From the IMG/VR virus record IMGVR_UViG_3300027736_000062, positions 1 through 53,694 of that record: DNA of 53,694 bases; one strand, 5' to 3'. The position numbers were made by a program, and so were the translations under genes. The DNA is from a virus. Lineage: Duplodnaviria > Caudoviricetes. The notes below the pieces were generated by a model. The model ran no database searches. It was not told the origin of the DNA and saw only the letters and a program-made list of their open reading frames with translations. Of this stretch, positions 1,911 to 40,598 are shown piece by piece (within the stretch, counting starts at the first letter, position 1; every line of letters starts with the position of its first letter).

Positions 1911-2165
1911 TTACCAGCCGGGGCAATCCCACCGCTTCAGCGATGCTTTTGCGCGTGGTGCGTCCCCTTTAGAATGCTCGACCACACCAGACATCCGAGC
2001 GCAAAACGAGTCCTTGCGGGGACCCCCTTTGGGTTGGGGCGCTTTTAGGTGCGAACCAGTCTCTCGATTGTACTTGTCGCGACCCTTTTGGGTAAGCCCC
2101 GCGCCTTTGGCAACGGACAATTTTTCACCGCGACCAACAGCAAGATTGACTTTTTTTTTGCTCAT
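1911..2165 (-). CDS. Small basic phage protein (DUF6321-like)
   Basis: RKDSFCARM...SLKRWDC motif; operon packing. Confidence 0.7.
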   Translation of the reverse strand: MSKKKVNLAVGRGEKLSVAKGAGLTQKGRDKYNRETGSHLKAPQPKGGPRKDSFCARMSGVVEHSKGDAPRAKASLKRWDCPGW

Positions 2166-2440
2166 TTTACTTTGGCGGTCTTTGCAGACTGCTTAAAGTC
2201 TTGAGCCGTTGGAGCACCCTTGCTGCCAACTCGGCGCATCTTTTCGCCAGATCCTTCAGCGATTCTTTCACGTTTTGCATTGATATTTTCATACAAGCCG
2301 CCGCCTTTCATTTTCTTTGCCTCATCAGCTTTGGTAAATTCCTTACCAACCTTTTGAGAGATGCCAACCTTCTTAGCGAACGCAGGGTTATGTGCGACCG
2401 CCGTCATCAATTTGTGTTGAGCTGGTGACTTGCTTGGCAT
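2162..2440 (-). CDS. Small basic protein, two short modules joined by MKGGG
   Basis: Lys/Arg-rich ORF, ATGA overlap with neighbour. Confidence 0.75.
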   Translation of the reverse strand: MPSKSPAQHKLMTAVAHNPAFAKKVGISQKVGKEFTKADEAKKMKGGGLYENINAKRERIAEGSGEKMRRVGSKGAPTAQDFKQSAKTAKVK

Positions 2441-2442
2441 GA

Positions 2443-2859: not shown

Positions 2860-2874
2860 AATTTATCTCCAATT

Positions 2875-2898
2875 AAAAGCAGGGGCCGAAGCCCCTAC
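2875..2898 (-). terminator. Rho-independent terminator with UUCG loop
   Basis: Minus strand AGGGGC-TTCG-GCCCCT followed by GCTTTT. Confidence 0.75.
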
Positions 2899-2904
2899 CT
2901 TGTT

Positions 2905-4173
2905 TTAGCAATTCACAGCTCCACCACGCTTTTTAGCGGGTGACACTGTGACTGACTCTTTGGTCTTTGTGACGCTGTCAGTTTTGGGCATCGAGGAGAA
3001 CAGGTCTTTGGCCACGCTCTTCACTTTACCCATCACCTTGCCGGGGAAGCCACGGATCGACTTGGCCATGGCCATATCGTCCTCGTCAGGCCCCATTGCC
3101 TTGTCGTAAGCACCTTTTGAGAGGTCGACAGTGCCGCCCTCCGCAAGCTTCATACGGCTGGCTGGACCATACTTCTCGTTCGTGTCCATTTTGGCGGCAC
3201 GGAACGCAGGAGCATTCTCAGAGGTAGACATTTTCTGCAAGCGACCTTGTGCGGGCGTTACTTTGCCACCAGCCTTGTAAGTACCAGCGAGTTCGTTGAT
3301 TCTTACGGGCTTGGAGGCGGGCTTGCGACCTTGAGGCATCGCGACGGGACGACCTGAATTAACAGTTCCGCCCGCCGCGTAGGCTTTTTTTGTGGAACCG
3401 CCTTTTTTGTACATGGCGTCACCCATCATGCCTTCGCCCATCATGCCGCCGTCCATCATGCCTTTGACCTTGCCGCCTTTTTTGTAGCCGCCGCCGTTTG
3501 ACTTGGCAACACCACCAGTAGCAAAGCCACCGCCATTGCCCAGCTTCACTCCACCAGTTTTGGCGGGTGAATGGTCAGGCTTGGCCGTGTCCATCTTGGT
3601 GTTGCGATATTCGCCGCCTTGGTCTTCGGTGTTGATGATGCCGTCGCCAGCAACCCCACCTTTGGCCATCTTGACGTCACCGCCTTTTTTGTAGCCGCCT
3701 TGGCCATTGACAACGCCGCCAGTGGCCATCTTGCCGCCCTTTTTGAGCTTCAATGAAGTGCCTTTGCCGCCTTTGTGCTCTTGCATGTCGTGCTGCTTGA
3801 AAGCCTTTTTGATCATGGCCTTGTCTTGCGCCATGTCCATCTTGCCGCCTTCAGCCTTGCCGCCTTTTTTCATTGCAGGCATACCCATAGGGGCCTGCAT
3901 TTGAGCAGCGCCGCCGATTGGGCCAGCAGGGCCAGCACCAGCGGGCATGCCCTTCATGGCGCGGCGACGCATAGCCAGCGAAGGCTTCATGGGAGCGCCA
4001 GCCATCGGCATGCCGCCACGGGCAGGCATCGCAGGAGGGATGTCAGCAGCGCTCATGGGCGAACCCATCATGCCACCGTCAGCCTTCTTGGCCACCTTGC
4101 CGCCTTTTTTGAGCTTCAGTTCAACTGAAGGCTCAGTGGTCTCCATTTTGACCATTGGTTTAAATTGACCCAT
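2905..4173 (-). CDS. Low-complexity Met/Lys/Gly-rich protein with many [FYML]xxGG repeats (putative internal head protein)
   Basis: AAGGAG SD before ATG 4173; repeats KKGGKV, MATGG, YKKGG, MAKGG, FATGG, YAAGG, YKAGG, LAEGG. Confidence 0.8.
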   Translation of the reverse strand: MGQFKPMVKMETTEPSVELKLKKGGKVAKKADGGMMGSPMSAADIPPAMPARGGMPMAGAPMKPSLAMRRRAMKGMPAGAGPAGPIGGAAQMQAPMGMPAMKKGGKAEGGKMDMAQDKAMIKKAFKQHDMQEHKGGKGTSLKLKKGGKMATGGVVNGQGGYKKGGDVKMAKGGVAGDGIINTEDQGGEYRNTKMDTAKPDHSPAKTGGVKLGNGGGFATGGVAKSNGGGYKKGGKVKGMMDGGMMGEGMMGDAMYKKGGSTKKAYAAGGTVNSGRPVAMPQGRKPASKPVRINELAGTYKAGGKVTPAQGRLQKMSTSENAPAFRAAKMDTNEKYGPASRMKLAEGGTVDLSKGAYDKAMGPDEDDMAMAKSIRGFPGKVMGKVKSVAKDLFSSMPKTDSVTKTKESVTVSPAKKRGGAVNC

Positions 4174-4183
4174 GTCGTTCTCC

Positions 4184-5161
4184 TTATGCTTGTGTGACGC
4201 CGAGAGCGCCAACACGGGTTGCATTTGGGCCTACCGCAATTGCAGGCAGGGCGATTCCCATTACGAGACGTTTGATACCGTCACAGGCCGATGAGGGCAG
4301 GTAAGTGCCCCTTACGTCACCAGTTGTGGTGGTTGCTGTAGCAGTGGCGGCAACAGTCATAGTGCCAGCATCTTCAGCCAAAGTATTGTCCCAACCAGCG
4401 CGGGTAACGTAACCTCGATCAGTGATGCGCAATGGTGCACCCAAGATGTCGGTTGTACCTACCGCAACAGTTACCACACTTCCGCCAGAAGCAGTGACAC
4501 TAGAGATCTGGTAGAAGGCTTTTTTACCGTTGACAGTTGTTGATGCCACTGTTCCTGTTGCAATTACTTCGCTCATGGCTTGACCGTAGTAGTCGTAGCC
4601 AGAAACAGTAATGTTGACAGAAGTCGGAGTACCAGCACCTGTGGTTGTAGAAACCGCACGAGGGCAGTCAAGCTGCAAGCCTGTTGCGCCGCCTTGAATT
4701 GTGGCGGATGTAACACCAGCACCTGCGGCCAGCGTGAGCGTGGTGGCAGTTGTGATAACAGCGGCAACAATGTTGGTTGTCAACTTAGCCTGTGGTACGG
4801 CGTCCCAAATATAAACACGACCTAAAGGGCCAACACCTACGCTCATTGGGGACGGGTTTTGCAACAAAGCATTACCAGAACCAACGATGGTGGCGCTTGC
4901 TACGGTTTGCGAGGCGCTTACGGTGTAAGTTCCTACACCACCTGTGCCTGTACCAAAAGCGGTAATGTAAGTTCCATTGGTAAGGGACGTTGAGCTGTCA
5001 ATAAACATACCCACAGCAATTGGGTCACCAGAAAGCAAGGCGGTGACGGTCAATGTGGTGGTAGCGATTGAGCCAGTGAAAGTTGAAACAGCAGGGTACT
5101 GGTCCATACCTTGAACGGTAAGGGCGGAACCCAGAAAAAGATCATCTGAAAATTGAGGCAT
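4184..5161 (-). CDS. Capsid-decoration/structural protein with inserted Thr/Gly-rich beta module
   Basis: AAGGAG SD before ATG 5161; immediately downstream of the major capsid gene. Confidence 0.65.
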
Positions 5162-5192
5162 GGTCTGCTCCTTGAAAAGTTTGACCAAACAT

Positions 5193-5233: not shown

Positions 5234-6148
5234 TTACATGCCGGGTGTACCGTACATTGCACGCGGGTCGGTGAACCCGGGGATGTAACGCTCGGTAGCC
5301 TTGTAGCGCATGGAGTCGGTTTCAAAATCGCCTTCCATGGTCTTTTCCAGCTTGCGACGCATCAAGAGCTTCATGCCCTCGGGAGCGTCGGTTTGTACCC
5401 AGAATGCTGTAGGGCTGGTTAAGCGGCTGATAACAGCAGCGCCTTCATCCAACAAGCCAATTGACTTGACAGGGTTCAGGTCGTTGTTTGCTGTACCAGA
5501 GCGCAGGACGCTCTTTAGCAGAACTTCGGCTTGGAAGACGTTGCCGGGGGCCACCACCAATTGGCGGGGCACAAGGCGGATCTTCTTGCCGTTGTTGTCA
5601 ACAGCTTGACGGATCTGGATCAACATCTGTTCCAAAGAAGTCTGGGACAGGTTGGCCGCAGTGGTCAACTGGTTGCTGAAAGTACCGTTCACGATGGGGT
5701 GGGCAGTGTTAATCAAAGACACGCCGTCGCCACCGGGGTAGCTGCTGTTGAACGCACGATTCAAGATGTTCGCGCACAGGGTCTCTTTTGTCTCGATCAG
5801 AGACTGAGCCAAGTGACGAGCATAAACCTGACCGATACGGATGTGGTCGCCGTCTTCAACCAACACTTTGGTCAACGCGAAGGCCAAGCCATACACGTTG
5901 TACACATAGCGTTGCAAGAAGAGCACGCCGCCCTGTTGATAGCTGACAGGAGTACCGTCAGGCAACTGGGGAGCCGCGCCAAAACCGTACAGGACGGGTT
6001 CTTCGTGGTAGTTACGGGGAATACCGTCTTGCTCGCGGAACACACGGCTCCACTCGTCGGTACGTTGGTCATAGACTCCGTCGAAGCATTCGTTGAGGAT
6101 AGGTTCAACAATACTTCTAAAGTCCGTACTGCGCATTGGTGCTGCCAT
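5234..6148 (-). CDS. Major capsid protein (HK97 fold, Mu gpT-like group)
   Basis: 304 aa; PRQLVVAP and EGDFETDSMRYKATERY...DPRAMYG motifs; follows scaffold and precedes a strong terminator. Confidence 0.85.
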   Translation of the reverse strand: MAAPMRSTDFRSIVEPILNECFDGVYDQRTDEWSRVFREQDGIPRNYHEEPVLYGFGAAPQLPDGTPVSYQQGGVLFLQRYVYNVYGLAFALTKVLVEDGDHIRIGQVYARHLAQSLIETKETLCANILNRAFNSSYPGGDGVSLINTAHPIVNGTFSNQLTTAANLSQTSLEQMLIQIRQAVDNNGKKIRLVPRQLVVAPGNVFQAEVLLKSVLRSGTANNDLNPVKSIGLLDEGAAVISRLTSPTAFWVQTDAPEGMKLLMRRKLEKTMEGDFETDSMRYKATERYIPGFTDPRAMYGTPGM

Positions 6149-6754: not shown

Positions 6755-7297
6755 TCACCCGTGGAATACGGGAGTTTGGACGTTTCGGTTCAAATTGCCA
6801 AAGCCTTCGCCTTCAACACTTCCCAGACTTCTGCCTGAGCTATCGCGGTTTCCTTGAAGCTGCTCAACTTGGACCTGAACTTTGTCAGACTCCTCATTGG
6901 GCGCGTCATGGTGCATTTGAGTCATGACCTCCTGATAAACCTCCATTGGAAGCTTGTACAGGCGCATCTCATTGCACGCGATAAAACCAATGTCTTCGCC
7001 AGCCTTTACGCGGTAATTGTCGAACCCGGGTAACTCATCCGCTCTCACGGGAACATACCCCAGTCGCATCCGCTTATCAATACTGTCGTAGCCGTTGGTG
7101 GTTGATAACCAGCAAAGATGCCATCCCGGAATTTCCGGAACCTTCGGCAGCGCACTTTGTGTCCATTCATCGCTCCACATCTTGCGACGTTCCTGCTTTG
7201 AAATGAACGCCTCTTCTGGGGCAGCGCGTGACAAATCTTGTGAAGATCGGCTTTCACGGCCACCTGCGTTGAGGGTTTTTTTGAGACGAGAATCCAT
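6755..7297 (-). CDS. Conserved head-module protein of unknown function
   Basis: Between scaffold and cement genes; PGWHLCW...RLGYVPV pattern. Confidence 0.7.
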   Translation of the reverse strand: MDSRLKKTLNAGGRESRSSQDLSRAAPEEAFISKQERRKMWSDEWTQSALPKVPEIPGWHLCWLSTTNGYDSIDKRMRLGYVPVRADELPGFDNYRVKAGEDIGFIACNEMRLYKLPMEVYQEVMTQMHHDAPNEESDKVQVQVEQLQGNRDSSGRSLGSVEGEGFGNLNRNVQTPVFHG

Positions 7298-8241: not shown

Positions 8242-8672
8242 AGGAATGCCCTCACAGCAAGTGGATCACCAGTCAACTTCGCAATCACTTCGTGATCGTT
8301 CAGGACCATAAACAAGGCGCGTTCTTCGTTTTCATCCTCGCCGGGGACGTGAACCTCCCAACGATCGCCACCCCACTTGGGCACGCGGATGTAATCGCCC
8401 TCTGTACACCAAGAGCCTTCAGGCCAGCCCAACATCGTGTCACGATGCTTAAATGCCAGCGGTCCGATCTCGATGACCTTGGCCACCATGTTTTGCCACT
8501 TTTCGGTTTCCTTGGTTTCTTCGACCAAAATAATTCCAGATGCAGTTGTTGTCTTTTTTGTGCGGCGAAGCTGAACTAACAGTCTTCCACCAAGAGGTTT
8601 TGCACCGGGATCTACGCTCGGAAATGCCCAAGCCATCTCAGCTTCGTTAGAAGCTACCGGGTTGTTACTCAT
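8238..8672 (-). CDS. groES: GroES-like co-chaperonin
   Basis: KPLGGRLLV...TASGIIL...KVIEIGP...GDYI...LNDHEVIA matches the Cpn10 pattern. Confidence 0.8.
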   Translation of the reverse strand: MSNNPVASNEAEMAWAFPSVDPGAKPLGGRLLVQLRRTKKTTTASGIILVEETKETEKWQNMVAKVIEIGPLAFKHRDTMLGWPEGSWCTEGDYIRVPKWGGDRWEVHVPGEDENEERALFMVLNDHEVIAKLTGDPLAVRAFL

Positions 8673-8847
8673 TCTCATCTTCCTTCATCAGGTTGTTTAG
8701 GATTTCGAGGGCCTCTTGCAGGCCCGCGTTGTGACCGACCAGTCGAACGTAAGACTCCCAGTTCGTCGCATTACCAGCAACGAGGGACGCGGCTATTTCA
8801 GCCTGCCTAGCCTTAATTCCACCAATCAGATCCGAGAGGGTTCTCAT
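8665..8847 (-). CDS. Small helical head-module protein
   Basis: Overlapping packing; W..Y...VG...GL motif. Confidence 0.7.
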   Translation of the reverse strand: MRTLSDLIGGIKARQAEIAASLVAGNATNWESYVRLVGHNAGLQEALEILNNLMKEDENE

Positions 8848-11800: not shown

Positions 11801-14800
11801 TCATCGCTCGTCCGCCGCCATGGCGTTGATGTTGTAGCCAAGTGCAGCAAGTGCAGCGGCGGGCGTCATGCCTTGGCGGATCAAAGCCACGGCCTTTGGC
11901 CAATCAGCCTCACTGAAGAACCTGCGGGTCTCTTGGATGTCGCCGCGTGTGCCACCCATCTTGGAGTCGCGCAGGGCCTTCGCTCGAATTGCTGAACGCA
12001 CATTTTCAGACTCACCAAGGTTCTGTGACACGGTGGGGGGCAGGTCCGCGAATGCGTTGAGCATGTCGGTGGTTGCCTCACCACTGTAGGGCGCGGTGGA
12101 CAGCGGGCCTTCGGGGCTGCGCTTACCAACACCGGGGACATACCCCATGGTACTCAAGCTCTTCTCTTGCGACGACGGGAAGATCTCCTCCAGCCCCTTG
12201 CTGCTCTTGCGCATCGCCTTTGACGCATCCTTGGGGTTCATAGTGGCGTCGTATGGGAACATCACAGCACCACGGTTGCTTGCCGTCACGCCAAAGCCTT
12301 GAGGGCCTACTAGCTCATTCATCTTGGCCAACTGCTCAGACGTAGGCAGCATGCCTGCGCTTGGGTCGCTCAGTGCTTCTGGGTTGAGGTCACGAGTGTC
12401 AAGCACCATTGAGTTCTTGCCCTTGGTGCTTTTCATGGTGTTGGGCAGGTTGTACGCGCCAGCCTCCTGCGCATCCATTAGGGCGCGAAACTGCTCGGCT
12501 GCGTCCATCATCCTGCGTGAGTCTGGAGCCATCAAGCCGCCACCACCCGTTGGGAAGTCCATCAAGGGGCGAGAAATTGTCATGGGGTTGGTCTCAGTAC
12601 CACCAAGGCTGTTTTGGTAATACCCCTCTGCTTGGCGCGTTGGGAGCTGGCGGTAACCTAGCGCACTGTAAATGGCGTCGCGGTTGCCTGCGCCCACCTC
12701 TGGGAATTCGTTTAGTGCAGCCTCGGGCGCAGGCATGTCAAAACGACCTTCGAGGCTGTAGGCAAGCTTCTCTTCGGGCGTCATGTTCAGGGCTTGTGGG
12801 ACGTGGTTCAAACGCGCCCCGGGGATCTGCTCCGCCGTGGACGACGCCGCGTGCTTGTACATGTAGTCGCGGGCGGTGTTGTTGGCGTCTTGCAGGGACA
12901 TCTTGATGCCCTCTAGCTCGTCGCCTTTGTACTGGCCTTTCTTGCCCCTGCTATACAGGTCCTGCGCCTTGCCATAGACCCATGGAACTTCTTGAATGTG
13001 CGGGCCTTGCCAGTCCGTGCGGCCACCAGTGCCTGCGGTGTTGGCGCGGTCCACTTGCAGCGCGGTCTCGGCGTCCATGAACGGGTGCATGGTGTCTGAC
13101 ACGCCAGCCTTCCACGGGTTGCCCTGTGGGTCGGTGTAGCCCATGCCTTGGGCACGGCGGAAGTCGTTCACACCGAACAGGCCTTCGTTGGGAATGCGTG
13201 GGTCGTTCTTGTTGGCGTATTCGCCGATCTTGAAGCCCATGTTGGCTGGGCGATCTTCGGCCACGGCGCTGTCAAGATTGCGCATGCCAGCACCACGGTA
13301 AGCCATCTGGGGGTCACCAGCGTTGCGGCTATTCAGGTGCTTGAGCGCAAAGGTCAACTCTGACTCAGGGCTTACGCCTGCGGAGTAGACGCCATGCTGC
13401 TCAAGCGTGCGGGGTAACTGGTAAGGCTCGCTGCTCTCGGCGATGCCCTGCTTGGCTCGGTCGTACCATGTGCCAAGGCGCTCAGGGTCTGCAAGTCGCA
13501 CGGCCTCGACAGAGTCAGCGAAGTCGGTGTCCATGGCGCGGCGCATAGCACCAAGGCCTTGGCCACTTGTCACCGTGCGGGGTGCGCCGATGTAGCCTTC
13601 TGCTGTGGGCTTGAGGTGCTTGCCTGCTCGGGCTGCTTTGAGCACTGCCTCGTCGCCTTGGTCTTCGGCCATCTTGCGGTAGACGTCAGGGGGCACAGCC
13701 ACGCGCTTGCCCGTTGACTTGGCTGGCTTGGCTGCTTGGTCCTCGGGGCTTTGGCTTGCGCTTTCCTTGGCGGCCTTCTCGACCTTCTTCTGGCGCACGG
13801 CCTCTTGCTCTTGCTTCTGGCCAAACTTGTCGATCACGGCCCGCTCTTCAGGCGTGCGGACCACGATAGGCTCAACGCCCTTGGGCGCTTTGCCCATGAG
13901 CTTCTCGAGGCCTTCCTTAACGATGTTCTTGACCTTGCCACCCTTGGCCATCTCGACGTCGCCCTTGATGGCTGACTCGGGCAGGATCATCTCGCCGATC
14001 TCACCACGCACGCGGTAGCCGGGTTCGTAGGGTGTGCGCTTGGCCTTGCCCGTCTCAGGGTCGATGATCTTCTTGCTGTTCCATGGCTCGCCTTCCCACA
14101 TGAGCTGGTTGCCATGACGTGATCGCTCGATGACCTCATAGGGCGCTCTGTTCTTCTTGGCGCTGTCCTCGGTGAACACTCGCTGGCCCTTGTCGTATTT
14201 GTAATCGAAGGCGTCCATCTGCTTCTTGGCTTCAGTGGCGCGGCGTCGCACCTCGTCGCCTAGCGATGTGTGGAAGTCTTGCAGGTTCGTCAGGTCCTTG
14301 GCTGCGGTGACTGGGGCCTTCATGCCAGCGGCCTCGGCTGCGCTCTCAATTGCATTTTTGGCCATGCGCTTGATTGCGCCACCACCTGCGTACTTGTAGT
14401 CCTTCTTGTTGCCATACTGAGGCTTGCGTGCCAATACCAGCGGGCCGATCTGGATGGCCTCTTCGGCTGCCGTGATGGGCTTCATGCTGCGGCGGTCGTA
14501 GAAGTAGCCATGGCGCTCTGGGTCCATACCGACCTGTGCCCACTCTGGGTGGTCGAGGTACTCTTGAGCGCGGGCCATTGCGGTCGCCTCATCCATCGGG
14601 TTCCAGTTGCCCTTGATGGTGGCGATCGTGCCCTTGGGCTTGCCTGCTGCAATGCTGAGGGCTGCCTTCTCGGACATGCCGAACGTGGGGTTCATCACGC
14701 CAGCGACGCTTTCATATCCAACGCGGTCGCCAGCTCCGAAGCCAGCGGCTTGGCGGTGAACTGCTGGAACCCACACGCCATGATCGCTGTAGGCAGGGAT

Positions 14801-15727
14801 GTCAAGGCGCAGGCCCACTGGGTCACCAGCTTCGAGAATGCCCGAGGGTGTGCCGTACAAGTCGCGCTTGTCTGCCGTCAGTGCGTTGACTGCGTCATCT
14901 CTGCTGGCAGGCTTGGGCACAAACTCGTAGGGCTTGACGGGCTTGTATTTCTTGACGAGCTTCTCGTATTCGGCGCGGGTCATCTCGTCGCCCTGAATCT
15001 TTTGTGCGCCCTCTTGCAGCTCGGGCACGCGCTTGGTCACGTCCTTGAAGTGCATGTTGATGCGGTCGACCATGGGCTTCAAGCCATCGACCACGCCCTC
15101 GACTGCGTCCTTCACAGCCTTCTTGACTGCGCCGCCCTTGGCGTAGGCTGGGCCTTCAATGATATGGCCACCGTCGGCCATGTCAGGCACGGTGCTGAAC
15201 ACCTCACCACCAGAGGCAAACTTCTGCACCTTGCCGTGCCAGACGTGCTCACGGCCCCTGTGAGAGGATGGAACGCCACCACCAGCCATGGCCCACTCTT
15301 TGAGGGACTGGCTCTTCTTGGGAACCGAATCGGTTTCGATTAGCTTTAGCTTCGGTAAGTCAATGGTCTTGAGTTTCTTGAGCATGTTCTTGCCTGCCTT
15401 AAATGTGCTGTAGCCGCCGGGGATCAGGCCTGCTGCCGCGCCAGCGGTCTCGGCGGCTGCGTCAATGTAGTCACCGCGCTTGACCGAATCGCCTGCGTGG
15501 CCAAGGTCGCGAGCGCCTTCCTCAAGTCCCATGGTGGTCCCGACGAACGGCACGAAGTCAGCAATGCCCATACCCATGGGCAGGTTGCTGCTGTCGCCGC
15601 CTGTGATGGTCTGTGCGTGCTTGCGGGCTTTGTAGCGGTTGACACCTAAGCCCTCCATGCCGCCTTGGAGTGCTGAGGCCATACGCTCTCGTATGGTTGG
15701 GTCGTATGCCCGCATTTCGTCAGCCAT
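11801..15727 (-). CDS. Large multidomain (polyvalent) protein with GG-motif linkers and a HhH-glycosylase-like domain
   Basis: About 1308 aa between terL and portal; segments delimited by MAGGG/FASGG/MADGG/YAKGG/YAGGG/MAKGG. Confidence 0.8.
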   Translation of the reverse strand: MADEMRAYDPTIRERMASALQGGMEGLGVNRYKARKHAQTITGGDSSNLPMGMGIADFVPFVGTTMGLEEGARDLGHAGDSVKRGDYIDAAAETAGAAAGLIPGGYSTFKAGKNMLKKLKTIDLPKLKLIETDSVPKKSQSLKEWAMAGGGVPSSHRGREHVWHGKVQKFASGGEVFSTVPDMADGGHIIEGPAYAKGGAVKKAVKDAVEGVVDGLKPMVDRINMHFKDVTKRVPELQEGAQKIQGDEMTRAEYEKLVKKYKPVKPYEFVPKPASRDDAVNALTADKRDLYGTPSGILEAGDPVGLRLDIPAYSDHGVWVPAVHRQAAGFGAGDRVGYESVAGVMNPTFGMSEKAALSIAAGKPKGTIATIKGNWNPMDEATAMARAQEYLDHPEWAQVGMDPERHGYFYDRRSMKPITAAEEAIQIGPLVLARKPQYGNKKDYKYAGGGAIKRMAKNAIESAAEAAGMKAPVTAAKDLTNLQDFHTSLGDEVRRRATEAKKQMDAFDYKYDKGQRVFTEDSAKKNRAPYEVIERSRHGNQLMWEGEPWNSKKIIDPETGKAKRTPYEPGYRVRGEIGEMILPESAIKGDVEMAKGGKVKNIVKEGLEKLMGKAPKGVEPIVVRTPEERAVIDKFGQKQEQEAVRQKKVEKAAKESASQSPEDQAAKPAKSTGKRVAVPPDVYRKMAEDQGDEAVLKAARAGKHLKPTAEGYIGAPRTVTSGQGLGAMRRAMDTDFADSVEAVRLADPERLGTWYDRAKQGIAESSEPYQLPRTLEQHGVYSAGVSPESELTFALKHLNSRNAGDPQMAYRGAGMRNLDSAVAEDRPANMGFKIGEYANKNDPRIPNEGLFGVNDFRRAQGMGYTDPQGNPWKAGVSDTMHPFMDAETALQVDRANTAGTGGRTDWQGPHIQEVPWVYGKAQDLYSRGKKGQYKGDELEGIKMSLQDANNTARDYMYKHAASSTAEQIPGARLNHVPQALNMTPEEKLAYSLEGRFDMPAPEAALNEFPEVGAGNRDAIYSALGYRQLPTRQAEGYYQNSLGGTETNPMTISRPLMDFPTGGGGLMAPDSRRMMDAAEQFRALMDAQEAGAYNLPNTMKSTKGKNSMVLDTRDLNPEALSDPSAGMLPTSEQLAKMNELVGPQGFGVTASNRGAVMFPYDATMNPKDASKAMRKSSKGLEEIFPSSQEKSLSTMGYVPGVGKRSPEGPLSTAPYSGEATTDMLNAFADLPPTVSQNLGESENVRSAIRAKALRDSKMGGTRGDIQETRRFFSEADWPKAVALIRQGMTPAAALAALGYNINAMAADER

Positions 15728-15911
15728 GATCAGTGCCTTTCGCTTGTACCCCTGAATCATAAACGGTGGCATCTGTCAAGTCCACCCTCTGATTCAGCCA
15801 GCGCTCGAACATGTCACGCGCCCAGTCCTTGTCGACAGGCTCATTCCATGAGCTTATCAACTCAAAGCGATTGGCGCACATTTCGACGCGGGCAGTTTGG
15901 TTAGATTGCAT
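15720..15911 (-). CDS. Hypothetical protein (63 aa)
   Basis: Bridges terL and the next gene with short overlaps. Confidence 0.55.
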   Translation of the reverse strand: MQSNQTARVEMCANRFELISSWNEPVDKDWARDMFERWLNQRVDLTDATVYDSGVQAKGTDHG

Positions 15912-19829: not shown

Positions 19830-19893
19830 AGTATAACACCAGATTAAACTAAAATACGGCCAATGCAAAATATTTTCTAAGTAGTTTCCCTTA
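19830..19893 (-). promoter_or_regulatory. Early promoter cassette copy 1
   Basis: Extended -10 TGt-TATACT, GTTTAAT spacer motif, upstream AT tract and imperfect palindrome TAAGTAGTTTCCCTTA. Confidence 0.6.
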
Positions 19894-20655
19894 TGCCGCC
19901 TTGCCTGCTTCGAGGATCTTGTTGGCTGCGCTGAAGATGCGCTGGGCCGACTTATCGGTGATGTCTGCGCCTTGCAGCCAGTTCTGGATGTAGCCGCGTG
20001 ACTCGTGCAAGCCGGGCAGGTCCAGCACCGAGCACAGGATGTAGGCCACGCCCTCTGCCTCGACTTCGCGGATGTCGCGGGGTGTCACCTCGCTGTCGGC
20101 CATCACCTCGTCGGTGGTGTGGCCAAGGACGACGTGGGCCAGCTCATGGAAGCGTGTCTTGTGGGGCAGCACGGCCACTGGGTTGATGGCGATGGTGCGA
20201 CCGCTGGCGTAGCCTTGGCAGTTACCGTTGGGGTAGTCAAAGGCCACCTCGCTGATGTCCAACTTAACCAACGCGGCTGCCTTGTCCCATGCTGGGGTGA
20301 CCACCTCGTTGACATACTCGTCGCCCTCAGTCTGACCGAGCACGAACCAGTTATTGCGAAGGCTGAACATGCTGAACGACTCGCCAGTCTTTTCGCCTGC
20401 TGCGTCTTTTTTGTTGATGGTGAGGGGCATCACCAGTGCGATGGCCTTCTGGCCCTTGCTGACTTGGCGGCCCAGCTCGGACCACTTCTTGTAGGTGGCG
20501 ATGGGGCCGATGGGGATCTCGCGCTCCATGCACTGTGACCAAGCCAGCAGTTGGTTGCCGATGCTGTAGCCGTGAAAGGTGCTGTAGCACTTGCTGATGA
20601 TGCCGGGCTGGTTGACGGCGTCTTGAAGCAGTTGGCTGAAGTTTGCTTTTTCCAT
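19891..20655 (-). CDS. ArdC-like ssDNA-binding/zincin antirestriction protein
   Basis: FHGYSIGNQLL...ATYKKW.ELGRQV.KG.K N-terminal domain plus HELAH and E.EAE zincin motifs. Confidence 0.8.
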   Translation of the reverse strand: MEKANFSQLLQDAVNQPGIISKCYSTFHGYSIGNQLLAWSQCMEREIPIGPIATYKKWSELGRQVSKGQKAIALVMPLTINKKDAAGEKTGESFSMFSLRNNWFVLGQTEGDEYVNEVVTPAWDKAAALVKLDISEVAFDYPNGNCQGYASGRTIAINPVAVLPHKTRFHELAHVVLGHTTDEVMADSEVTPRDIREVEAEGVAYILCSVLDLPGLHESRGYIQNWLQGADITDKSAQRIFSAANKILEAGKAA

Positions 20656-34295: not shown

Positions 34296-37200
34296 TTATC
34301 TCCTAGCTGTGCGAGCGGGTTTTTTAAGGTAATCCAAAGGTGATTTTTTCGCTGGTGGCGGTAAATCCTTTGGTTTTGCCGACCTGTGATACGCCCGAAT
34401 CGAGTGCATCATGTTGTAGAGTTTATCGCTTCCTGCCTTAGTTGAGCCATTTCCAAGCGCGGCAACCACGTCAGCAGGGAATACAAATTCGCCATCAGCC
34501 AACATGGCAGGGATATCGTCCGACTGCCCGTCCCCGGGTCCCGTGACGGCGTTTCCTGTGCGGAAGTCCAGCCGTGGCTTGCCAGAGTGGTGAACCACAT
34601 TTAGCCCACCCCCAGCGTAGTGGCCATAGCGGGTTGTGCCGCCACCCGCAAACAGAGGCGTTGCAAGGCCACCAGCTTTGAATGGAAGCGTCGGAGCTTG
34701 ACCGCCACCCAGAAAGTCATTGATGTCGGTCTGCTGCCCGTAGTTGAAATAGTTAGACCCTTGCTGGGGCTGAGGCTGTGGGGTTGAGAGTTCGTCTTGC
34801 ACTTGGGCCACCTGCTGGTTCTGTTGTTGAGTTTCTTGCTGTGTTGGGTTTGGCGAGTAATCATTTTCTTTGACCATCTTGAGATATTGCTCAAGAGGGC
34901 CTTCAAACTTTGCTTCACCTGTAGTTTTCAAACCAATTTGTCGATATGGCGTGTCGTCGGACACAGCGGCAGCAGCGGGGGCAATCATGGCCATTGCGGC
35001 GCTGAGGCCGCCTTGAGTCCTTGCTTTGTCCTCAGCGGCCTTTTTGGCTTTTGCTTCTTCTTCTTGCTGTTTTTTAATATCGGTGACGCTGGTCTGTAAA
35101 CCACTTATGCCAGTGCCAAGCTCTTTAAGAGCCTGTTGCGTGGCCTCTTGATATGTCTTGCCTTGCAACACCAGCTCGTCGACGCGAGTGTTGAACTGCG
35201 TCTGAACATCGGTGATGTTCTTGGTCAGATCCGTCTTGACATCGGTAATTTGCTGAGTCGTTGTCTTGACTGCGGTATCAATTGCCTTGTTGATATCCAC
35301 GCCCATTTGGATTTGGGCATTGACGATGTCCTTCTGGTTTTGAGTCAGCGTGTCAAACTTGGTCTTGACGTCACCACTCAATGTGTTGAGCTGGGTCTTG
35401 ACGTCAGTGATCTGCTGCGTGGTCAACTTGGACGCAGTATCAATCGCTTTGTTGATGTCAATACCCTGTTGCGTGTACGCAGAGACAATGTCTTTTTGAC
35501 CTTGCGTCAGCGCATCAAATTTTGTTTTGACGTCAGCAGTAACACCAGTCAGCGCTTTTGTCAGCGCGTCATTGGTGACAGTGTCATTTGTTGCGGTTGT
35601 GCCAGTTGTACCTGTAGTCCCGGTAGTTCCAGTTGTACCAGTTGTACCAGTTGTACCAGTCGTCCCGGTTGTCCCGGTTGTCCCGGTTGTCCCGGTTGTC
35701 CCAGTGGTTCCAGTGGTTCCAGTGGTTCCAGTGGTTCCAGTTGTACCTGTCGTACCAGTAGTTCCGGTCGTTCCCGTGGTTCCAGTTGTGCCTGTAGTTC
35801 CAGTGGTTCCGGTAGTGCCTGTGGTTCCGGTAGTGCCTGTGGTTCCGGTAGTGCCTGTGGTTCCGGTAGTGCCTGTGGTTCCGGTAGTGCCTGTGCCGCC
35901 CGTTACAAAAGTCGTTCCAGTCGTACCTGTTGTCCCAGTAGTTCCCGTTGTTCCTGTGGTCCCAGTCGTGCCAGTCGTACCTGTGGTTCCTGTGGTTCCT
36001 GTAGTACCAGTCGTTCCGGTAGTCCCAGTTGTACCCGTTGTACCCGTTGTACCTGTTGTTCCGGTGGTTCCTGCTGTTCCGGTAGTTCCTGTTGTTCCGG
36101 TAGTTCCCGTTGTTCCGGTAGTTCCAGTAGTTCCCGTCGTTCCTGTTGTGCCCGTAGTCCCAGTGGTTCCCGTAGTTCCCGTCGTTCCGGTCGTTCCGGT
36201 CGTTCCGGTCGTCCCAGTGGTTGTTGTGACCTTAGACGCTTCATAGGCTGCTTTGTCACCGTTGAATTTAGTGTAAGTACCGTAGTCAGGAAAACCTGCA
36301 TCAATAGCTTTTTTGGTGTTTGCAGCCTGCGTCAGAGCATTGTTGTAAACGCCCAAATCACCTTTGTATTGAGTGTAGGTTGCGTAGTCGGGAAATCCCG
36401 CTGCTTTTGCAGTGGCTAAATTTGCCGCACTTGCATTGGCCGTGTTAAATGCATTTATGTCACCCTTGTAAAGGGTGTAATTTGCGTAATCAGGAAATCC
36501 TGCCGCCTTAGCAGTTGCCAAATTTGTGGCGTTTGTTTTGGCTGTGTTGTACGCCTGAATGTCACCGCTATATTGCGTATAAGTCGCATAATCGGGAAAG
36601 CCTGCATCAGTGGCTTTTTTGGTATTTGATTCGTTTGTTTTGGCGGTATTGTAGGCAGCAACATCTCCGCCATATTTGGTGTAAGACGCAAAATCAGGGA
36701 ATCCTGCGGAGGTAGCCTTGAGTGTGTTTGCGGCGTCAGTTTTTGCGGTGTTGTAATCCGACAAATTGCCGTTGTACTTAGTGTAAGTCGCATAGTCAGG
36801 GAACCCAGCCGCAGTGGCCAAGTTGTTGTTCTGCGCGTTCTGATAAAGCGTTTTGTCGCCACCATATTGTTGGTACGCAGCGTAATTTGGAAAGCCTGCT
36901 GCTTGAGCTACGGCCTCATAATCCGTTGTAGTTTGCAATGGCGCAGTTCCATTCAAAACGCTTGGGCTAAATACAACTTTGAAATCAGCCGCTGGCGTTT
37001 TGTAAATGTCATCGAGCACCGTTGTGAAATTAAACGATGGGTTTTTCTTGACGATTGAGTCAATGTTGCCAAGCGTGATTGGTGTTCCATCAGCAGACCT
37101 GTAAACAACAGTGCTGTAATCAGTCACGCTAGAAGGCAACGTGTCTTTTATGTCGCTTGGCGGAATTCCTATGCTTGTTCCAACAGCAGTCAATGCGCCC

Positions 37201-40200
37201 AAAGTAACCGAGCCACCATTGTTTGATTTGCCAATTTCAGCAGAAGAATTGAGAGTGCTCAGATCAACGTCTTTTGTTCCGTTCATCAGCTCTTGGAACG
37301 TCACATTGTTGCCCGAGTAATCTTTTGCAACAACGGCCAAATTATTGATTGATGCCGGGGCAATGATTGTGGCAGCCGTACCCGCTCCAATAATGCCAGA
37401 GTAGAAAGATTCTGCGTTTAATTGTCTGGTATTGATTTCGCCAGTCGTTACATACTGCGTTGTTGCATTTTGAGCATAAGTTTCAAGGTACTCTTGAGCA
37501 AAGTTAGTTGCAAGGGTTGAGCCAAATTTGGCCGCCACCTCTTTGACACCTCCAGTAACGCCTTGAAAATAATGTGCAAACAACATCTTGTCCGCAATAA
37601 ATTCTGTTGGAATTGTCACTGCGGCGTGAATTGCTCCAACCATCAAAGCCTTGTCGCGAGCCACATCTTCTGACACGCCTTTTGCTTTTAAGGCGTCATA
37701 AGTTTCTTTGGCTCCAGCCCCAAGAGACTCCAAACCATCAAGGGACGCAGAAATAGCCGACCTGACTGCGATTGCTGCTGGTATGCCCATCGGCCCCATA
37801 AAGGCAGTTGCCACGGCTCCAAGGGCCAGCCCGGGGCCTTCCTGAACAACCTCTTTGCCAGTGGCGCTGATGAACCCAAGCGGGTTGTCGTATGCGGCCT
37901 TGCTTATGGTTTGAATAGCAGTGAAAAAATCTTCCTTGCCTGCTTTTGCAATTGCGTTTTCAATGTTCTTTGTTTCTTGCGCAACGCTTGCACCGTCCTT
38001 GTCTTTGCCCCACTGCTCAATGGTTTTACCCAAGTTGTAAGTTGCGTTGTCGTAAGATGTTCCTGTGAGCGCTGCAACGCCACTGGCGTAGTTTTGCATC
38101 AGCTCGCCAATACCCTGAGCGCCTGTAGCCGCTAATTGACCAAGAACCCCGGTCGCCCGCACATTGGTGGCAGTTCTGTCGTCAGCAAGGCTTAGAGAGC
38201 CTCCTGTGACGTTACCCATGGCGTCGAAGGTGCGAGTATCAACGTAGACGTTGTCGTCCTTCTTGCCGTAGTAAATGTTCTCAGCGCCAGCAGGTTTGCC
38301 GCCCAAGAAACCTCGACCTGCACCAGCCACGTCGTTGGCAGGCATGAGGTTGATTCGGTTCTGAGCGTCAGCTAAATATTTGTCATAACGCTTGGTCTGT
38401 TCTTCTTTGTTTTCAGTGGTGTACTGTTTACCGTTCCACTCAAAAACCGCCCCGTTGCCGTATGCAGATCGCGCTGCCGCATAAGCTTGGCCAAACGAAA
38501 CTTTTTGGTCAACGGAAGCGCCGGGCGACACATAACCGGACGGCAAATCCAAACCATTGATGGCCAAGTCGGTGGCGGTGCTTTGGACGTTGCCTGACTT
38601 GAGTGCAGCTTGAAGCTGATCGCTTGTGGGGTCCTTGCCGACTACAGCAAAGTAAGCATCGCGTGCTTTTTGACTGGCCAACAAATTGATTTCATTGGTA
38701 GGACTGACGGTGTAAGTTGCTCCAGCAAGCTTGGCAGCTTCTGCTTCGGTCGGCGTGAAACCGTAATCGCGCCTGCAAATATTTTGCACGTCAGTAGTTG
38801 ACAACACGCGCCCGGCATCATTGTTGAAATCAACCTTGGACCCGTCAGTCCCAGTAAAGTCCATGACTTTTTGGGGAATGCCAGCAGCGTTGGTGAACAC
38901 CTGCTGACCGTCTTGCATAAACTTACCTTGACTGGTCAAAATCATGCCGTTGGAAAGGGTCCAACTGCCATCATCATTTTTGCTTGTAACCTTGATGGCC
39001 CCGGTGTTCAGGGCGTCAATGGTCGCATCACGAGTGGCCACCTCAGCCAGCGCCTTGGTGTAATTCTCAGCGGTCCGATCTGCCGCGTCTTTGGTCTTAG
39101 CCCAAGCATCGTATTTTGTTTGATAAGCGTCAGCAGCAGCCTTCAATGCAGCAGCAGTTGAGCCAACAGCAGTTACATCTTCAACATCTTTTTTGATGAC
39201 GTTAAGGTCTGCAATCTTTTTGTCAATTACAGCTTTGCTATCGCTCAATCCATCAAGCATTGGCTTGTTGTCGTCATACAGCTTTTGCGCTGCTTCTTGC
39301 GTAGACTTAGCCGTTGTGGCCGCAGCGTTGGCGGCTGTGGCGGCAGCATTTGCTTTGTCTGCAAACGACTGTTGAGTTGGCGCATCTTGAACAACTCGAT
39401 AGGTTGGGTTTCCCTCATCATCTGTTACGGTCCCGTCTGATTTCCAATATTTGTAATAACCATCTTCTGAGTTCCAACCGTCAGTTAATGTTGCTCCAAC
39501 AACCCTGTAGTAATAAATACCGTTATCGTCGTCACCTATTAAATATCCAATATCACGCATTTTTGCTTCGTAATTGTCGTAAGCCGATTTACTGTCGTCA
39601 AAAATTTTCTTTTGATCGTTAAACGTGTTTACGGCAGCCTCATTGTCAGAGGCTAATTTGTCATACTCTGTTTTGAACGGGCTGTACTGCTCATCAAGAA
39701 TTTTTTGGTATGCAGCAGCATCAGTATTGATGGCATTGCGCAGCTCTTCGCCTTTTGTGACTTTGGTGTCGTACTCCGCTTTGGCAAGGGTGTACTTATC
39801 TTGAGCCGCTTGAGCCGCTACAGTGTCTGTCGTCAGCAACTTGTATGAGTCTTTGACAGACTGCGCAAGGGACGACGTACCCATGTTTATGGTTGCATAA
39901 GCAATGTAATTGCCAATGGCCTGAGCTGGGTCGCCTTTGCCAGAAATGATTGTGTTCAAAGCGGTGCTTGTTGCACCCTTCATCAGGTCCAAAGCTTTGG
40001 TGCTGAATCCCCAGTTGGGGTCCTTGTTCAATGCATCAAAATAGCTGTTGGTTGATGAATAGACAAGACCAGATGTAAAGCCTGAAGCAATCCCATCAGT
40101 GATTGATTTTCCACTGATTGCCGCATTCAAGCCACCAATGATTGATGAATTCAAACTTGCAGTCGCAGCCTTCGCAACAGACACGGCCATGTCTGCTGGG

Positions 40201-40598
40201 AGGTTGTAATTCTGCATCATCGAGTTTGTGAAATCTGTACCAGCGGTTTTGGTGTAGTCGCCAATTACCTTGCCAATTTCAGTGCCACTTAAAGCTTCAG
40301 AAGCAACGTAAGAAATTGCTGCCGACTTGGCAATGTCTTCAAGCTTCCCGCCTTTGGCGGCAGTAATTGCCGCAGCAGTTACATATGGCGGAATTCCAAA
40401 ATATGTACCCGCAACTTGCAACAGAGTCGGCAAAGGATCTTTGAGAATAGCCGTGACTGCTTTGCCTATGCCCTCAACAGCACCAACAATTGCTTTGCCT
40501 ATCCCAGAAATAACATTACCCACGGCGCTAACAACGCCAGAGATAGCGTCACCAATTCCACCAACGATTCCTGATACTGCATCAACAATTCCACTCAT
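34296..40598 (-). CDS. 2100-aa ejection/internal virion protein with repeat tracts and tape-measure-like C-terminal domain
   Basis: Amphipathic N-terminus, coiled coils, 34-aa repeats, (TTG)n, C-terminal [20 protein letters not shown]. Confidence 0.8.
35595..36227 (-). repeat. (Thr-Thr-Gly)n coding repeat, roughly 65-70 triplets
   Basis: 9-nt degenerate tandem repeat; perfect 18-nt unit x5 at 35803-35892. Confidence 0.95.
36231..36910 (-). repeat. Seven ~34-aa repeats [15 protein letters not shown]...YN.A
   Basis: Visible in the translation and as ~102-nt DNA repeats. Confidence 0.9.

Follow-up and report, generated by a model that had tools for sequence, protein, structure and literature searches.

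What do four proteins of one phage genome have in common if they are not homologous and yet carry the same five-residue motif? The window analyzed here, a stretch of 53,694 nucleotides, is a circular 53.7-kb phage genome of podophage appearance: an SU10-type adaptor is present, and Pfam and PHROG scans of the window ORFs detected no family of tail tube, sheath or tape-measure chaperone. A preliminary description had noted [FYML]xxGG in four non-homologous late genes, and the coordinates and sequences it gave for them are borne out. We find that the motif is a genuine, previously undescribed junction and tail tag of cargo proteins, restricted in distribution, conserved at the protein level, placed at junctions and in tails, and located where the genes interchange between fused and split forms. 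In its strict form, [FYML]-[AK]-x-G-G, usually followed by x-[VIL], it occurs 22 times genome-wide, and all 22 copies fall within the four named proteins of 92, 439, 1323 and 2100 aa. None of the 99 GG dipeptides in all other window proteins belongs to a strict copy, a confinement figure that is partly post hoc because the [AK] refinement was picked after the hits were seen. At the -3 position of GG, F, Y, M or L stands in 29/63 cases in the four proteins and in 9/99 cases in all others, with a background F+Y+M+L frequency of 0.16. As the preliminary description had it, capsid, portal, terminase and early proteins of the window contain no strict copy; nor do other Gly-rich window proteins (737, 498 and 1274 aa, with 11-14 GG each). 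Synonymous codons vary among the 22 copies, and the motif is therefore not a DNA repeat.

Composition-preserving shuffles, 5000 per protein, reveal enrichment in part. The 439-aa protein has 14 loose copies where 2.05 are expected (p<2e-4) and 12 strict copies where 0.56 are expected; the 1323-aa protein has 8 loose (2.22 expected, p=0.0016) and 6 strict (0.44 expected). Enrichment fails for the 92-aa protein (one loose copy, MKGGG at aa 44; 0.08 expected, p=0.08) and for the loose form in the 2100-aa protein (6 copies, five of them within aa 1962-1998; 3.73 expected, p=0.18), where the strict form reaches 3 versus 0.74 (p=0.04). The count alone is thus significant in only two of the four proteins, and the other two rest on relatives: the motif occupies the junction of the two modules of the 92-aa protein in 28 of 29 fused forms, and the glycine pairs of the C-terminal cluster of the 2100-aa protein are invariant or nearly so in 56 sequences.

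Confinement to the same protein families extends across 80 close relatives, whose capsid proteins are 91-98% identical. Motif copies per 1000 aa are most frequent in the 439-aa family (26.1), followed by the 92-aa family (11.0), DUF6321 proteins (5.7) and polyvalent proteins (2.7). The portal has 0.05, and the capsid (71 ORFs), the large terminase, the adaptor and the proteins of 334, 190 and 180 aa have none; since the relatives are closely related, these counts are not independent events. Among 914 unique contexts, the frequencies at position -3 are 0.21 for Y, 0.17 for M, 0.13 for F and 0.11 for L, and position -2 is K or A in 69%.

The motif is seen as a junction in the small basic proteins. 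In the 92-aa protein (2162..2440, minus strand; pI 10.3), module A (aa 1-43) is joined to module B (aa 49-92) by MKGGG (aa 44-48, nt 2297-2311). PHROG matches split at aa 45/47, with phrog_16759 covering aa 1-45 and phrog_16028 covering aa 47-91. In 204 phage records each match covers either aa 1-43/53 or aa 48-90, and none covers at least 80% of the protein. Across 21 aligned relatives the junction column reads F/M/L, K/A, x, G, G. The adjacent 84-aa DUF6321 protein (1911..2165, minus strand; Pfam DUF6321, 5.6e-17) constitutes a further module, C, which lacks the motif in the window; in relatives the motif joins it to B, A or D, as in the fusions B-MKEGG-C, A-FKEGG-C and D-LKAGG-C. The small-module locus of the relatives comprises five basic modules in 86 unique ORFs of 12 architectures, and 75 of its 84 internal junctions carry the strict motif, the other nine being near variants that still end in GG. 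The window, other relatives and marine T7-like phages also encode the same modules as separate ORFs, split at the motif point. The preliminary description had noted the motif at apparent domain boundaries and had proposed stand-alone ORFs that start or end there as a test; both are supported. Stand-alone downstream modules begin with MAKKN.., MSKKN.. or MAKxG.., and one begins with MAKGG, so that the M versions of the motif could be fusion scars; the F and L variants cannot be start codons, and FKGGG accounts for 10 of 29 A-B junctions.

In the 439-aa protein the motif becomes a repeat. This Gly/Lys/Met-rich basic protein (2905..4224, minus strand), with its 12 strict copies, is probably disordered and has no Pfam or PHROG match; its length is 439 aa from the first ATG and 422 aa from the conserved start MGQFKP (nt 4173). 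Its family in relatives numbers 67 ORFs of 248-515 aa with 7-14 motif copies each. The N- and C-terminal segments are conserved and the repeat middle is variable: identity among relatives is 95% over the first 20 aa, compared with 27-80% over the whole protein. The window protein ends in KKRGGAVNC, and GG lies in the last 8 residues of 65/67 members. Nearly half of the motif spacings (339/704) are 5-13 aa, which looks more like a repeat, because cuts there would give tiny peptides. The motif carriers are basic and look disordered, with pI values of 10.1-10.4.

A different arrangement is found in the 1323-aa mosaic polyvalent-type protein (11801..15772, minus strand), encoded between the large terminase and portal genes. 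Its strict motifs start at aa 162 (nt 15275-15289), 185 (nt 15206-15220), 198 (nt 15167-15181), 210 (nt 15131-15145), 461 (nt 14378-14392) and 608 (nt 13937-13951). Part of the cluster at aa 162-214 is one conserved block of ~55 aa common to relatives, not four independent copies. Different segments of the protein are common to different relatives, and the alignments begin or stop at aa 461-473, 586-635, 133-142 and 199. The protein itself has no Pfam hallmark domain of polyvalent proteins and no Pfam family at E≤0.01; such domains are found in same-locus proteins of relatives (ART-PolyVal in 8/38, PcfJ in 6/38, LPD23 in 1/38), and it has modules in common with some of these domain-bearing proteins. 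Internal alignment endpoints of polyvalent proteins fall no more than 15 aa from a strict motif in 66 of 341 cases; 1000 null draws gave 25.0 ± 4.6 and never exceeded 42. GG of any kind likewise shows enrichment near the endpoints (138 versus 96 ± 8), but only 1.4-fold, compared with 2.6-fold for the strict motif. In one relative the polyvalent protein is divided into two ORFs, the first of which stops 17 aa past FAEGG. A motif-like tag is also present in the last 30 aa of 26 of 39 polyvalent-locus proteins, where 4.5 are expected.

The fourth carrier is a 2100-aa tape-measure-like protein (34296..40598, minus strand; Pfam Collagen, 1.4e-26), which is probably ejected. From N to C terminus it comprises a glycine-zipper segment, collagen-like GTT repeats, a coiled coil and a C-terminal module (aa 1955-2100; 34299..34736) with the motifs FKAGG (nt 34668-34682), FAGGG (nt 34638-34652) and YAGGG (nt 34605-34619), after which follows a conserved GEFV box. 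By tblastn the module is found in 90 phage records, the best E being 6e-11, and most of these carry the annotation tape measure protein. A profile of the module matches two solved tape measure chains that it did not include, 8zdo (5e-15) and 8rk3 (5.9e-9); the window sequence alone matches 8rk3 at E 0.055. One or more [FY]AxGG, a glycine-rich turn and the GEFV box form a layout common to tape measure C termini, seen in 9NA, a bat-gut phage, JBD30, Douge and lambda. The direct link between window and lambda is weak (hhalign probability 35%, E 4e-4, 62 columns), and the strong lambda match of the profile search is circular, lambda being part of the query profile. The 2100-aa protein has a module in common with tape measure proteins, which does not imply a measuring role; as to a tail-length ruler, the scans found no tail tube genes in the window, and a podophage adaptor instead. 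The module is very widespread (12,925 representative clusters at E≤1e-3), yet unresolved in every solved tail: in the available text of three reports the tape measure is modeled only over its last ~30-40 residues (PMC10721106, PMC11445458, PMC13033339). In our models the motif region has a pLDDT below 50.

Lambda offers a precedent for processing. FATGG and YATGG, which the preliminary description placed close to gpH's C-terminal end, are indeed present at 733 and 778. The accessible part of one study describes how gpH is cut within the C-terminal part, rich in glycine, to yield gpH* and a C-terminal fragment, and states that the cleavage site and the enzyme are both unknown (PMC12617516). We compute from its data that the cut lies within about 30 residues of FATGG; fragment 1-737, ending in FATGG, has a calculated mass of 80.1 kDa, compared with about 78 kDa reported (PMC12617516). 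In lambda tail-tip assembly a deubiquitinase-like peptidase, gpK, cuts gpI, according to excerpts of a meeting report (PMC12908700), and a peptidase of this type in lambda tail assembly had also been predicted (PMC1779556). Elsewhere, as far as the available passages of the reports go, TP901-1 Tal undergoes processing at a junction motif rich in glycine, and mutating the glycines blocks it (PMC11409707), and in T5 the cut in the tape measure protein follows Arg1127 rather than GG (PMC10038345).

Which enzyme might act on the tag in this phage? The preliminary description stated that no recognizable protease is encoded, which holds insofar as we found no conserved one, and is amended by one gene. 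Among the 63 window ORFs scanned with Pfam and PHROG (37 + 26), no GG-specific peptidase of the CE clan, JAB, C39 or any other type was detected, a result compatible with a missed fold; nor was any peptidase family detected in the polyvalent-locus proteins of 38 relatives (E≤0.01 for 11, E≤0.001 for 27). The only recognizable non-lysis peptidase of the window is an ArdC-N plus zincin metallopeptidase (19891..20655, minus strand) with Pfam matches to ArdcN (1.2e-11), Peptidase_M78 (2.3e-4) and MPTase-PolyVal (0.011) and an intact HELAH at aa 170. That it processes the tagged proteins would accord with these matches, and zincin-like peptidases have been proposed as processors of polyvalent proteins in the accessible text of PMC5512222. 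The gene, however, lies among early and middle genes and is absent from all five motif-keeping relatives inspected, each at least 94% complete, and it is therefore not the conserved factor; we consider such a role highly improbable. We know of no reported substrate of an ArdC-like zincin. Two further candidates gave little. The 180-aa head-module protein (6755..7297, minus strand), conserved in relatives with invariant His60, Cys108 and His129-His130, gave no protease-like fold (best Foldseek E 0.68, best VIA Z 3.5), and 40601-41086 yields only weak acetyltransferase-like leads. The capsid protein lacks an N-terminal propeptide, because the Pfam model alignment begins at residue 6, and the window has a separate scaffold-like gene; this combination is typical of phages without a head protease.

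We propose that the motif, lying in flexible joints and in C-terminal tails, acts as a short linear tag for recognition, and that a common partner would read it. Its carriers would be internal proteins that are probably ejected: the polyvalent effector, the set of small basic modules, the long repeat protein rich in Gly and Lys, and the giant tape-measure-like protein. Processing at the tag is our leading reading, held tentatively and at somewhat under an even chance. The preferred step would be endoproteolysis at or just after GG, which would free modules loaded as one chain and also detach a docking tail; the putative enzyme would be a host enzyme, or a phage protein without a recognizable protease fold. 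Polyubiquitin, the core precursors of adenovirus and the scaffold tails of herpesviruses would be parallels for such handling. The data are about equally compatible with a tag that serves packaging or docking and is not cut. The motif would then bind a common procapsid partner (scaffold, capsid inner face or portal) or itself, so that cargo is co-packaged as one mass, with the multi-copy Gly/Lys-rich protein as hub and DNA-binding filler. Several observations favor such uncleaved cohesion: the tight tandem spacing and high copy number in the 439-aa family, its conserved ends and variable middle, the C-terminal placement of the tag in that family and at the polyvalent locus, the basic and disordered-looking carriers, the low-confidence model of the motif region in the C-terminal module, a capsid that lacks a propeptide, and searches that turned up no conserved protease. 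Against it, none of our results identifies a partner, the parallel with aromatic-glycine cohesive motifs is drawn by analogy from eukaryotic proteins, and cohesion alone does not explain the interchange of fused and split genes exactly at the motif, nor does it account for the related region of lambda gpH being, in the accessible account, the region of cleavage (PMC12617516). We regard it as possible rather than likely.

The motif might also have no common reader. GG would then be a flexible linker, the M, K or A before it remnants of MAK../MSK.. gene starts, and the copies within each family inherited or duplicated segments of glycine-rich proteins. The start sequences of the stand-alone modules, the single ~55-aa block in the 1323-aa protein, the enrichment of any GG at alignment endpoints and the non-significant counts in the 92- and 2100-aa proteins all agree with a passive hinge. 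The 914 contexts do not: at -3, F, Y and L match M in frequency, and the preference for K or A at -2 is marked. Other Gly-rich proteins of the window lack strict copies, the endpoint enrichment is stronger for the strict motif than for GG, and the same pattern turns up both in proteins without homology to one another and in the tape measure proteins of unrelated phages. We consider a passive hinge unlikely.

A bolder extension of the processing reading, to which we give less credence still, is that one code, hydrophobic-[AK]-x-G-G, both loads and releases internal proteins in a large phage group and is also the cleavage site of lambda gpH (FATGG/YATGG), perhaps cut by gpK. Modules strung together or tailed with the tag would be recruited to the procapsid and cut after GG by an unrecognized peptidase, in a phage counterpart of polyubiquitin or adenovirus-core processing. 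Injected phage proteins are a main arena of phage-host conflict, and the recruitment of cargo into the capsid and its later release are understood for only a few model phages. A tag that a tape-measure-like protein has in common with polyvalent effectors and with small basic head proteins would help to predict virion cargo, give a handle for loading foreign proteins into capsids, and help to explain the free fusing and splitting of these genes.

Among known systems, the 1323-aa ORF resembles the polyvalent proteins of phages and conjugative elements described by Iyer, Burroughs, Anand, de Souza and Aravind in 2017 (PMC5512222). Like it, these are large mosaic multidomain proteins with a portal-adjacent gene in the head module; head packaging and injection are presumed for them, and the available text proposes their processing into separate domains (PMC5512222). 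Their hallmark domains (ART-PolyVal, PcfJ, LPD23) are present in some same-locus proteins of relatives and are not among the Pfam matches of the window protein. The words 'glycine' and 'linker' do not appear in that paper, which describes no junction motif and assigns processing to internal zincin domains (PMC5512222), whereas none were found in the window-type proteins. The tag also extends here to small basic proteins, a repeat protein and a tape-measure-like protein. Siphophage tape measure proteins have the same C-terminal module, which here ends a 2100-aa collagen-containing podophage-like protein. The Tal proteins of TP901-1 and Tuc2009 likewise have a glycine-rich processed junction between a structural and a cargo (catalytic) domain, but in the available description the site is NGGGNSGGGD, without the hydrophobic-[AK] prefix (PMC11409707). 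Tal has a single site in one protein, while the tag here is common to several. In the adenovirus protease consensus P4 is hydrophobic and P2 and P1 are Gly. By contrast, the hydrophobic residue of our motif, at -3 from the first Gly, would be P5 if the cut follows GG, and the adenain register could apply only to xGGG variants. As in polyubiquitin, a last unit has a short C-terminal cap behind GG, although any ubiquitin likeness of the putative cargo modules would be conjectural. Of the known GG-directed systems (adenovirus protease on core and capsid precursors, ASFV pS273R, polyubiquitin with deubiquitinases, and gpK acting on gpI), no peptidase of the CE clan, JAB or C39 type was detected in the window, and cleavage here is putative. 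What these systems and the tagged proteins have in common is a short motif ending in GG that joins modules or precursors, together with products that are, or here would be, basic and DNA-associated.

In the window, the loose form of the motif, [FYML]xxGG, accounts for 29 of the 63 Gly-Gly dipeptides in four proteins (92, 439, 1323 and 2100 aa) and for 9 of the 99 in all others, at a background F+Y+M+L frequency of 0.16. Every copy listed in the preliminary description is present at the position claimed. A or K nearly always stands at position -2, counted from the first glycine. With that residue added, the strict form [FYML][AK]xGG occurs 22 times in the whole window, always within the four proteins, against 0 of 99 among the other Gly-Gly dipeptides, a split that is partly post hoc because the [AK] refinement was picked after inspecting matches. 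The glycine-rich structural proteins of 737, 498 and 1274 aa hold 11-14 Gly-Gly each and 0 strict copies. Synonymous codons differ among the 22 copies, so the constraint acts at the protein level. Enrichment over shuffled sequences, which the preliminary description named as a check for each protein, is found for the 439-aa protein (14 copies versus 2.05 expected, p<2e-4) and likewise for the 1323-aa protein (8 versus 2.22, p=0.0016), but neither for the 2100-aa protein (p=0.18) nor for the 92-aa one (p=0.08); the latter two, being not significant by count alone, rest on comparative evidence.

Relatives were collected by a capsid search of IMG/VR, which gave at least 600 matching stretches, 595 of those listed encoding a relative. 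We kept the best 80 of these at least 595 (capsid identity 91-98%). Mechanical ORF calling on the capsid strand gave 1992 ORFs once identical copies had been dropped. Among these best 80 of at least 595 relatives, 944 strict copies fall in 217 of the 1992 ORFs. Their density per 1000 aa is 26.1 in the 439-aa family, 11.0 in the 92-aa family, 5.7 in DUF6321 proteins, 2.7 in homologues of the 1323-aa protein, 0.84 in unclassified ORFs and 0.05 in the portal; the capsid (71 ORFs), large terminase, adaptor and the 334-, 190- and 180-aa proteins have 0. The same families carry the motif across related genomes, with the capsid and large terminase free of it and the portal nearly so. Confinement of the motif to these families is therefore a trait of the clade, though the 80 relatives are close kin and the counts are not independent events.

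The window, a virus record of 53,694 bases, closes on itself: the ORF at 51733-53694 (minus strand) runs on in frame into 1-474 to give one 811-aa protein, so that the record is a complete, circularly permuted genome. The minus strand holds nearly all genes. The late region comprises the small terminase (17312-17902), the large terminase (15901-17319), the 1323-aa protein (11801-15772) between large terminase and portal, the portal (8983-11535), a GroES-like (Cpn10) gene (8238-8678, minus) between the portal gene and the scaffold-like gene, a charged 312-aa scaffold-like protein (7303-8241) followed by proteins of 180 and 190 aa, the capsid (5234-6148), a 334-aa protein and the Gly/Lys/Met-rich 439-aa protein (2905-4224). 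It ends with proteins of 138, 92 (2162-2440) and 84 aa (DUF6321; 1911-2165) and an adaptor-like protein. A second block contains an SU10-type adaptor (45039-45674), the 2100-aa protein with collagen-like repeats (34296-40598) and then a glucosaminidase protein. No tail tube or sheath genes were seen in the window by Pfam and PHROG scans, so the phage is likely a podophage. There are two SU10-adaptor-like genes, at 840-1901 and 45039-45674 (both minus), one with a strong match (3.1e-23) and one with a weak match (1.3e-4); the weaker also has a weak discoidin-like match. Within this layout, the motif is a protein-level feature restricted to a group of proteins that are probably internal.

The 439-aa family comprises 67 ORFs of 248-515 aa in the best 80 of at least 595 relatives, and its members are 27-80% identical, while the capsids are more than 91% identical. 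Each member carries 7-14 motif copies (median 10). In 914 unique Gly-Gly contexts, Y, M, F or L stands at -3 in 62% and K or A at -2 in 69%; nearly half of the spacings between copies (339 of 704) are 5-13 residues. Among 56 members the N-terminal 20 residues show 95% identity, and at the other end Gly-Gly lies within the last 8 residues in 65 of 67 and a C-terminal cysteine is present in 57 of 67. The window protein is basic (pI 10.1). Pfam at E<=10 returned nothing meaningful for this protein, for the last 146 residues of the 2100-aa protein (its C-terminal module) or for two pieces of the 1323-aa protein. Cargo-type proteins often close with a cysteine soon after Gly-Gly (in the window at 2905-2935, the C-terminus of the 439-aa protein; phage sequences L012-L091 among relatives): KKRGGxxC in those 57 of 67 family members, ..SCW and ..CPCW in small-module tails, ..CPGW in DUF6321 proteins and ..LCGCHD in several polyvalent proteins. 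Such a cysteine may form a disulfide or metal link.

The 92-aa protein consists of two independent modules, A and B, with MKGGG at their joint. PHROG profiles split at aa 45/47, and 204 phage records match either aa 1-43/53 or aa 48-90, none over 80% or more of the length; the former matches are from jumbo phages, where some bear the annotation virion structural protein, and the latter from marine podophages. Module B and the DUF6321 module (C) are also found as tiny separate ORFs beside the scaffold gene in T7-like pelagiphages and cyanophages. The locus is combinatorial: the best 80 of at least 595 relatives contain 86 unique ORFs with 12 architectures of modules A to E, and the strict motif occupies 75 of their 84 internal module junctions, the other 9 having near variants such as HKEGG and KKDGG. 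The window encodes A-MKGGG-B and then a separate C; many relatives encode A-B-MKEGG-C in one chain, and relatives with the modules as separate genes split at the same point as the motif junction. The proposal that such domains would also exist as stand-alone ORFs bounded at the motif is therefore borne out, fused and split forms sharing the break point: genes fuse and split freely at the motif. Tiny genes for module B and the DUF6321 module lie beside the scaffold gene in marine T7-like phages (L008, 1406-1907; L011, 1504-1650; L172, 1144-1758), and one pelagiphage has, as a tiny separate gene next to the scaffold gene, a 35-aa lysine-rich ORF with MLKGG.

The 1323-aa protein matches no Pfam family and no PHROG family. 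In relatives, the proteins encoded at this locus contain ART-PolyVal (8 of 38), PcfJ (6 of 38) and LPD23 (1 of 38) domains, and by these domain matches the terminase-portal locus is one for polyvalent proteins as defined in PMC5512222. The 1323-aa protein itself is a mosaic whose alignments to different relatives start and stop at several internal points: aa 461-473 (YAGGG at 461), aa 586-635 (MAKGG at 608), and aa 133-142 and 199, which adjoin a motif cluster at 162-214. Part of this cluster is a single conserved block of about 55 residues common to relatives, so its four copies are not independent. The 39 locus proteins have 341 internal alignment endpoints after collapsing, and 66 of these have a strict motif no more than 15 aa away, against 25.0 +/- 4.6 (maximum 42 in 1000 draws) under random placement; for any Gly-Gly the count is 138 versus 96 +/- 8. 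A recurrent domain of unknown function at aa 225-460 (14393-15100) is shared by polyvalent proteins of this clade, of roseophages CRP-9 and CRP-207 and of an uncultured podophage (phage sequences L001, L002, L025, L032, L043, L044, L065 and L081); its sole Pfam lead is a weak match to mycobacteriophage L5 gp82. [FY]xxGG always follows about 12 residues past this domain, even where the protein then stops, and in one relative the polyvalent protein is encoded as two ORFs, the first stopping 17 aa beyond FAEGG. The last 30 aa hold a motif-like tag in 26 of 39 polyvalent-locus proteins versus 4.5 expected. The motif is located at module junctions and C-terminal tails.

In 90 phage records, annotated tape measure proteins match the last 146 residues of the 2100-aa protein, as do proteins whose genes follow the portal gene of pelagiphages and roseophages. 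The tape-measure-type layout, seen in 9NA, a bat-gut phage, JBD30, Douge and lambda, is at least one [FY]AxGG, then a glycine-rich turn, then a GEFV box. Among solved structures, a profile matches the tape measure chains 8zdo (5e-15) and 8rk3 (5.9e-9); the strong match that it also gives to lambda is circular, since lambda itself is inside the profile, and a profile built from the family of the window protein matches lambda only weakly, with a probability of 35% (E 4e-4, 62 columns). At E<=1e-3 the module occurs in 12,925 representative clusters, and in the best 150 of these it is always at the extreme C-terminus, in proteins of 97-3022 aa. In 56 relatives the Gly-Gly of its three motif copies is invariant or nearly so. 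Models of solved tails cover no more of their tape measure proteins than the final 30-40 residues (PMC10721106, PMC11445458, PMC13033339), so the module has no known structure. An AlphaFold2 model from 56 sequences has a mean pLDDT of 51.6, with the motif region (residues 1-46) below 50, and is too poor for a fold search. By eye, we take the GEFV box to resemble a hairpin of LexA or signal-peptidase type enzymes; a peptidase-like role was dropped, there being no such Pfam match and no corresponding serine in lambda gpH. The rest of the protein (minus strand) has a glycine-zipper N-terminus, seven repeats of about 33 aa with GFPDYA, and a long collagen-like run of GTT triplets (aa ~1469-1670) whose one interruption is FVTGG. 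Genes for proteins of 86 and 161 aa (40601-41343, minus) lie directly upstream; in siphophages, tape-measure chaperones are encoded directly upstream of the tape measure gene.

The preliminary description saw no recognisable prohead protease, and none was found, although the window does encode a single non-lysis peptidase, an ArdC-like anti-restriction protein of ArdC-N and zincin type with an intact HELAH (19891-20655, minus). This candidate is missing in each of the 5 relatives whose completeness is 94% or more, and is therefore an accessory gene of the window genome rather than a conserved processing enzyme; its co-fold, with Zn, with the 92-aa protein (score 0.01, mark 0.32, run without controls) speaks neither for nor against binding. 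No peptidase families were found in the polyvalent-locus proteins of 38 relatives. The conserved 180-aa protein (6755-7297) has invariant His60, Asp71 and Cys108. Searching PDB sequences with its profile gave no match, the protein atlas gave unnamed viral clusters only, and its model (mean pLDDT 65, middling) yielded a best Foldseek E of 0.68 and a best VIA-align Z of 3.5, to winged-helix regulators; neither sequence profile nor predicted fold supports a hidden cysteine protease. For the 161-aa protein (40601-41086) the atlas points only weakly to DUF2824 and to GNAT acetyltransferases (scores 0.90-0.92). The capsid matches its family from residue 6 and the scaffold-like gene is separate, a layout that often goes without a head protease.

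A passive hinge or a scar of gene fusion is an unlikely explanation of the motif as a whole. Stand-alone downstream modules start with MAKKN.., MSKKN.. or MAKxG.., and in one case with MAKGG, so by their sequence the methionine versions could be fusion scars or internal starts. The F and L versions cannot be either, and they are frequent, with FKGGG at 10 of 29 A-B junctions in the best 80 of at least 595 relatives. A plain flexible linker, moreover, does not need the conserved hydrophobic-[AK] prefix, which is why some factor probably reads the motif.

What that factor does may be cutting or binding. Our tentative preference is for a cut after Gly-Gly, which would account for why fused and split genes are equivalent and would agree with the precedents in lambda and Tal. 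Docking or cohesion through the motif without cutting is a lesser possibility that we would still take seriously: it would account for tandem copies standing so close together, for the tags at protein ends and for the failure to find a protease. Cutting and docking could both be true, by analogy with other viruses, in which targeting sequences are removed after use.

As to the precedents, lambda gpH is cut in a glycine-rich region near its C-terminus into gpH* (~78 kDa, covering about residues 1-710) and a C-terminal fragment that remains in the tail tip, with neither site nor enzyme known according to the same paper (PMC12617516). Its FATGG ends at residue 737 and its YATGG at residue 782. 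A cut after FATGG would give computed fragments of 80.1 and 12.2 kDa, compatible with the published sizes and non-diagnostic. Also in lambda, gpK, with a deubiquitinase-like domain, cleaves a ubiquitin-like domain from gpI in tip assembly, as a meeting report describes (PMC12908700) and as was predicted earlier (PMC1779556). A glycine-rich junction motif is the site of processing in TP901-1 Tal (PMC11409707). The T5 tape measure protein, unlike a Gly-Gly-directed system, is cut after Arg1127 (PMC10038345). Literature searches with the motif pentapeptides as words gave primers and unrelated matches only, a poor search that is no evidence of absence; nothing relevant to Gly-Gly directed phage virion cleavage appeared among the matches listed, and none was found on DUF6321, DUF3008 or DUF7936. 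The words 'glycine' and 'linker' do not occur in the paper on polyvalent proteins (PMC5512222). On these grounds we rate the tag as new within known kinds, namely polyvalent or ejected proteins and glycine-directed processing, and not as a separate category.
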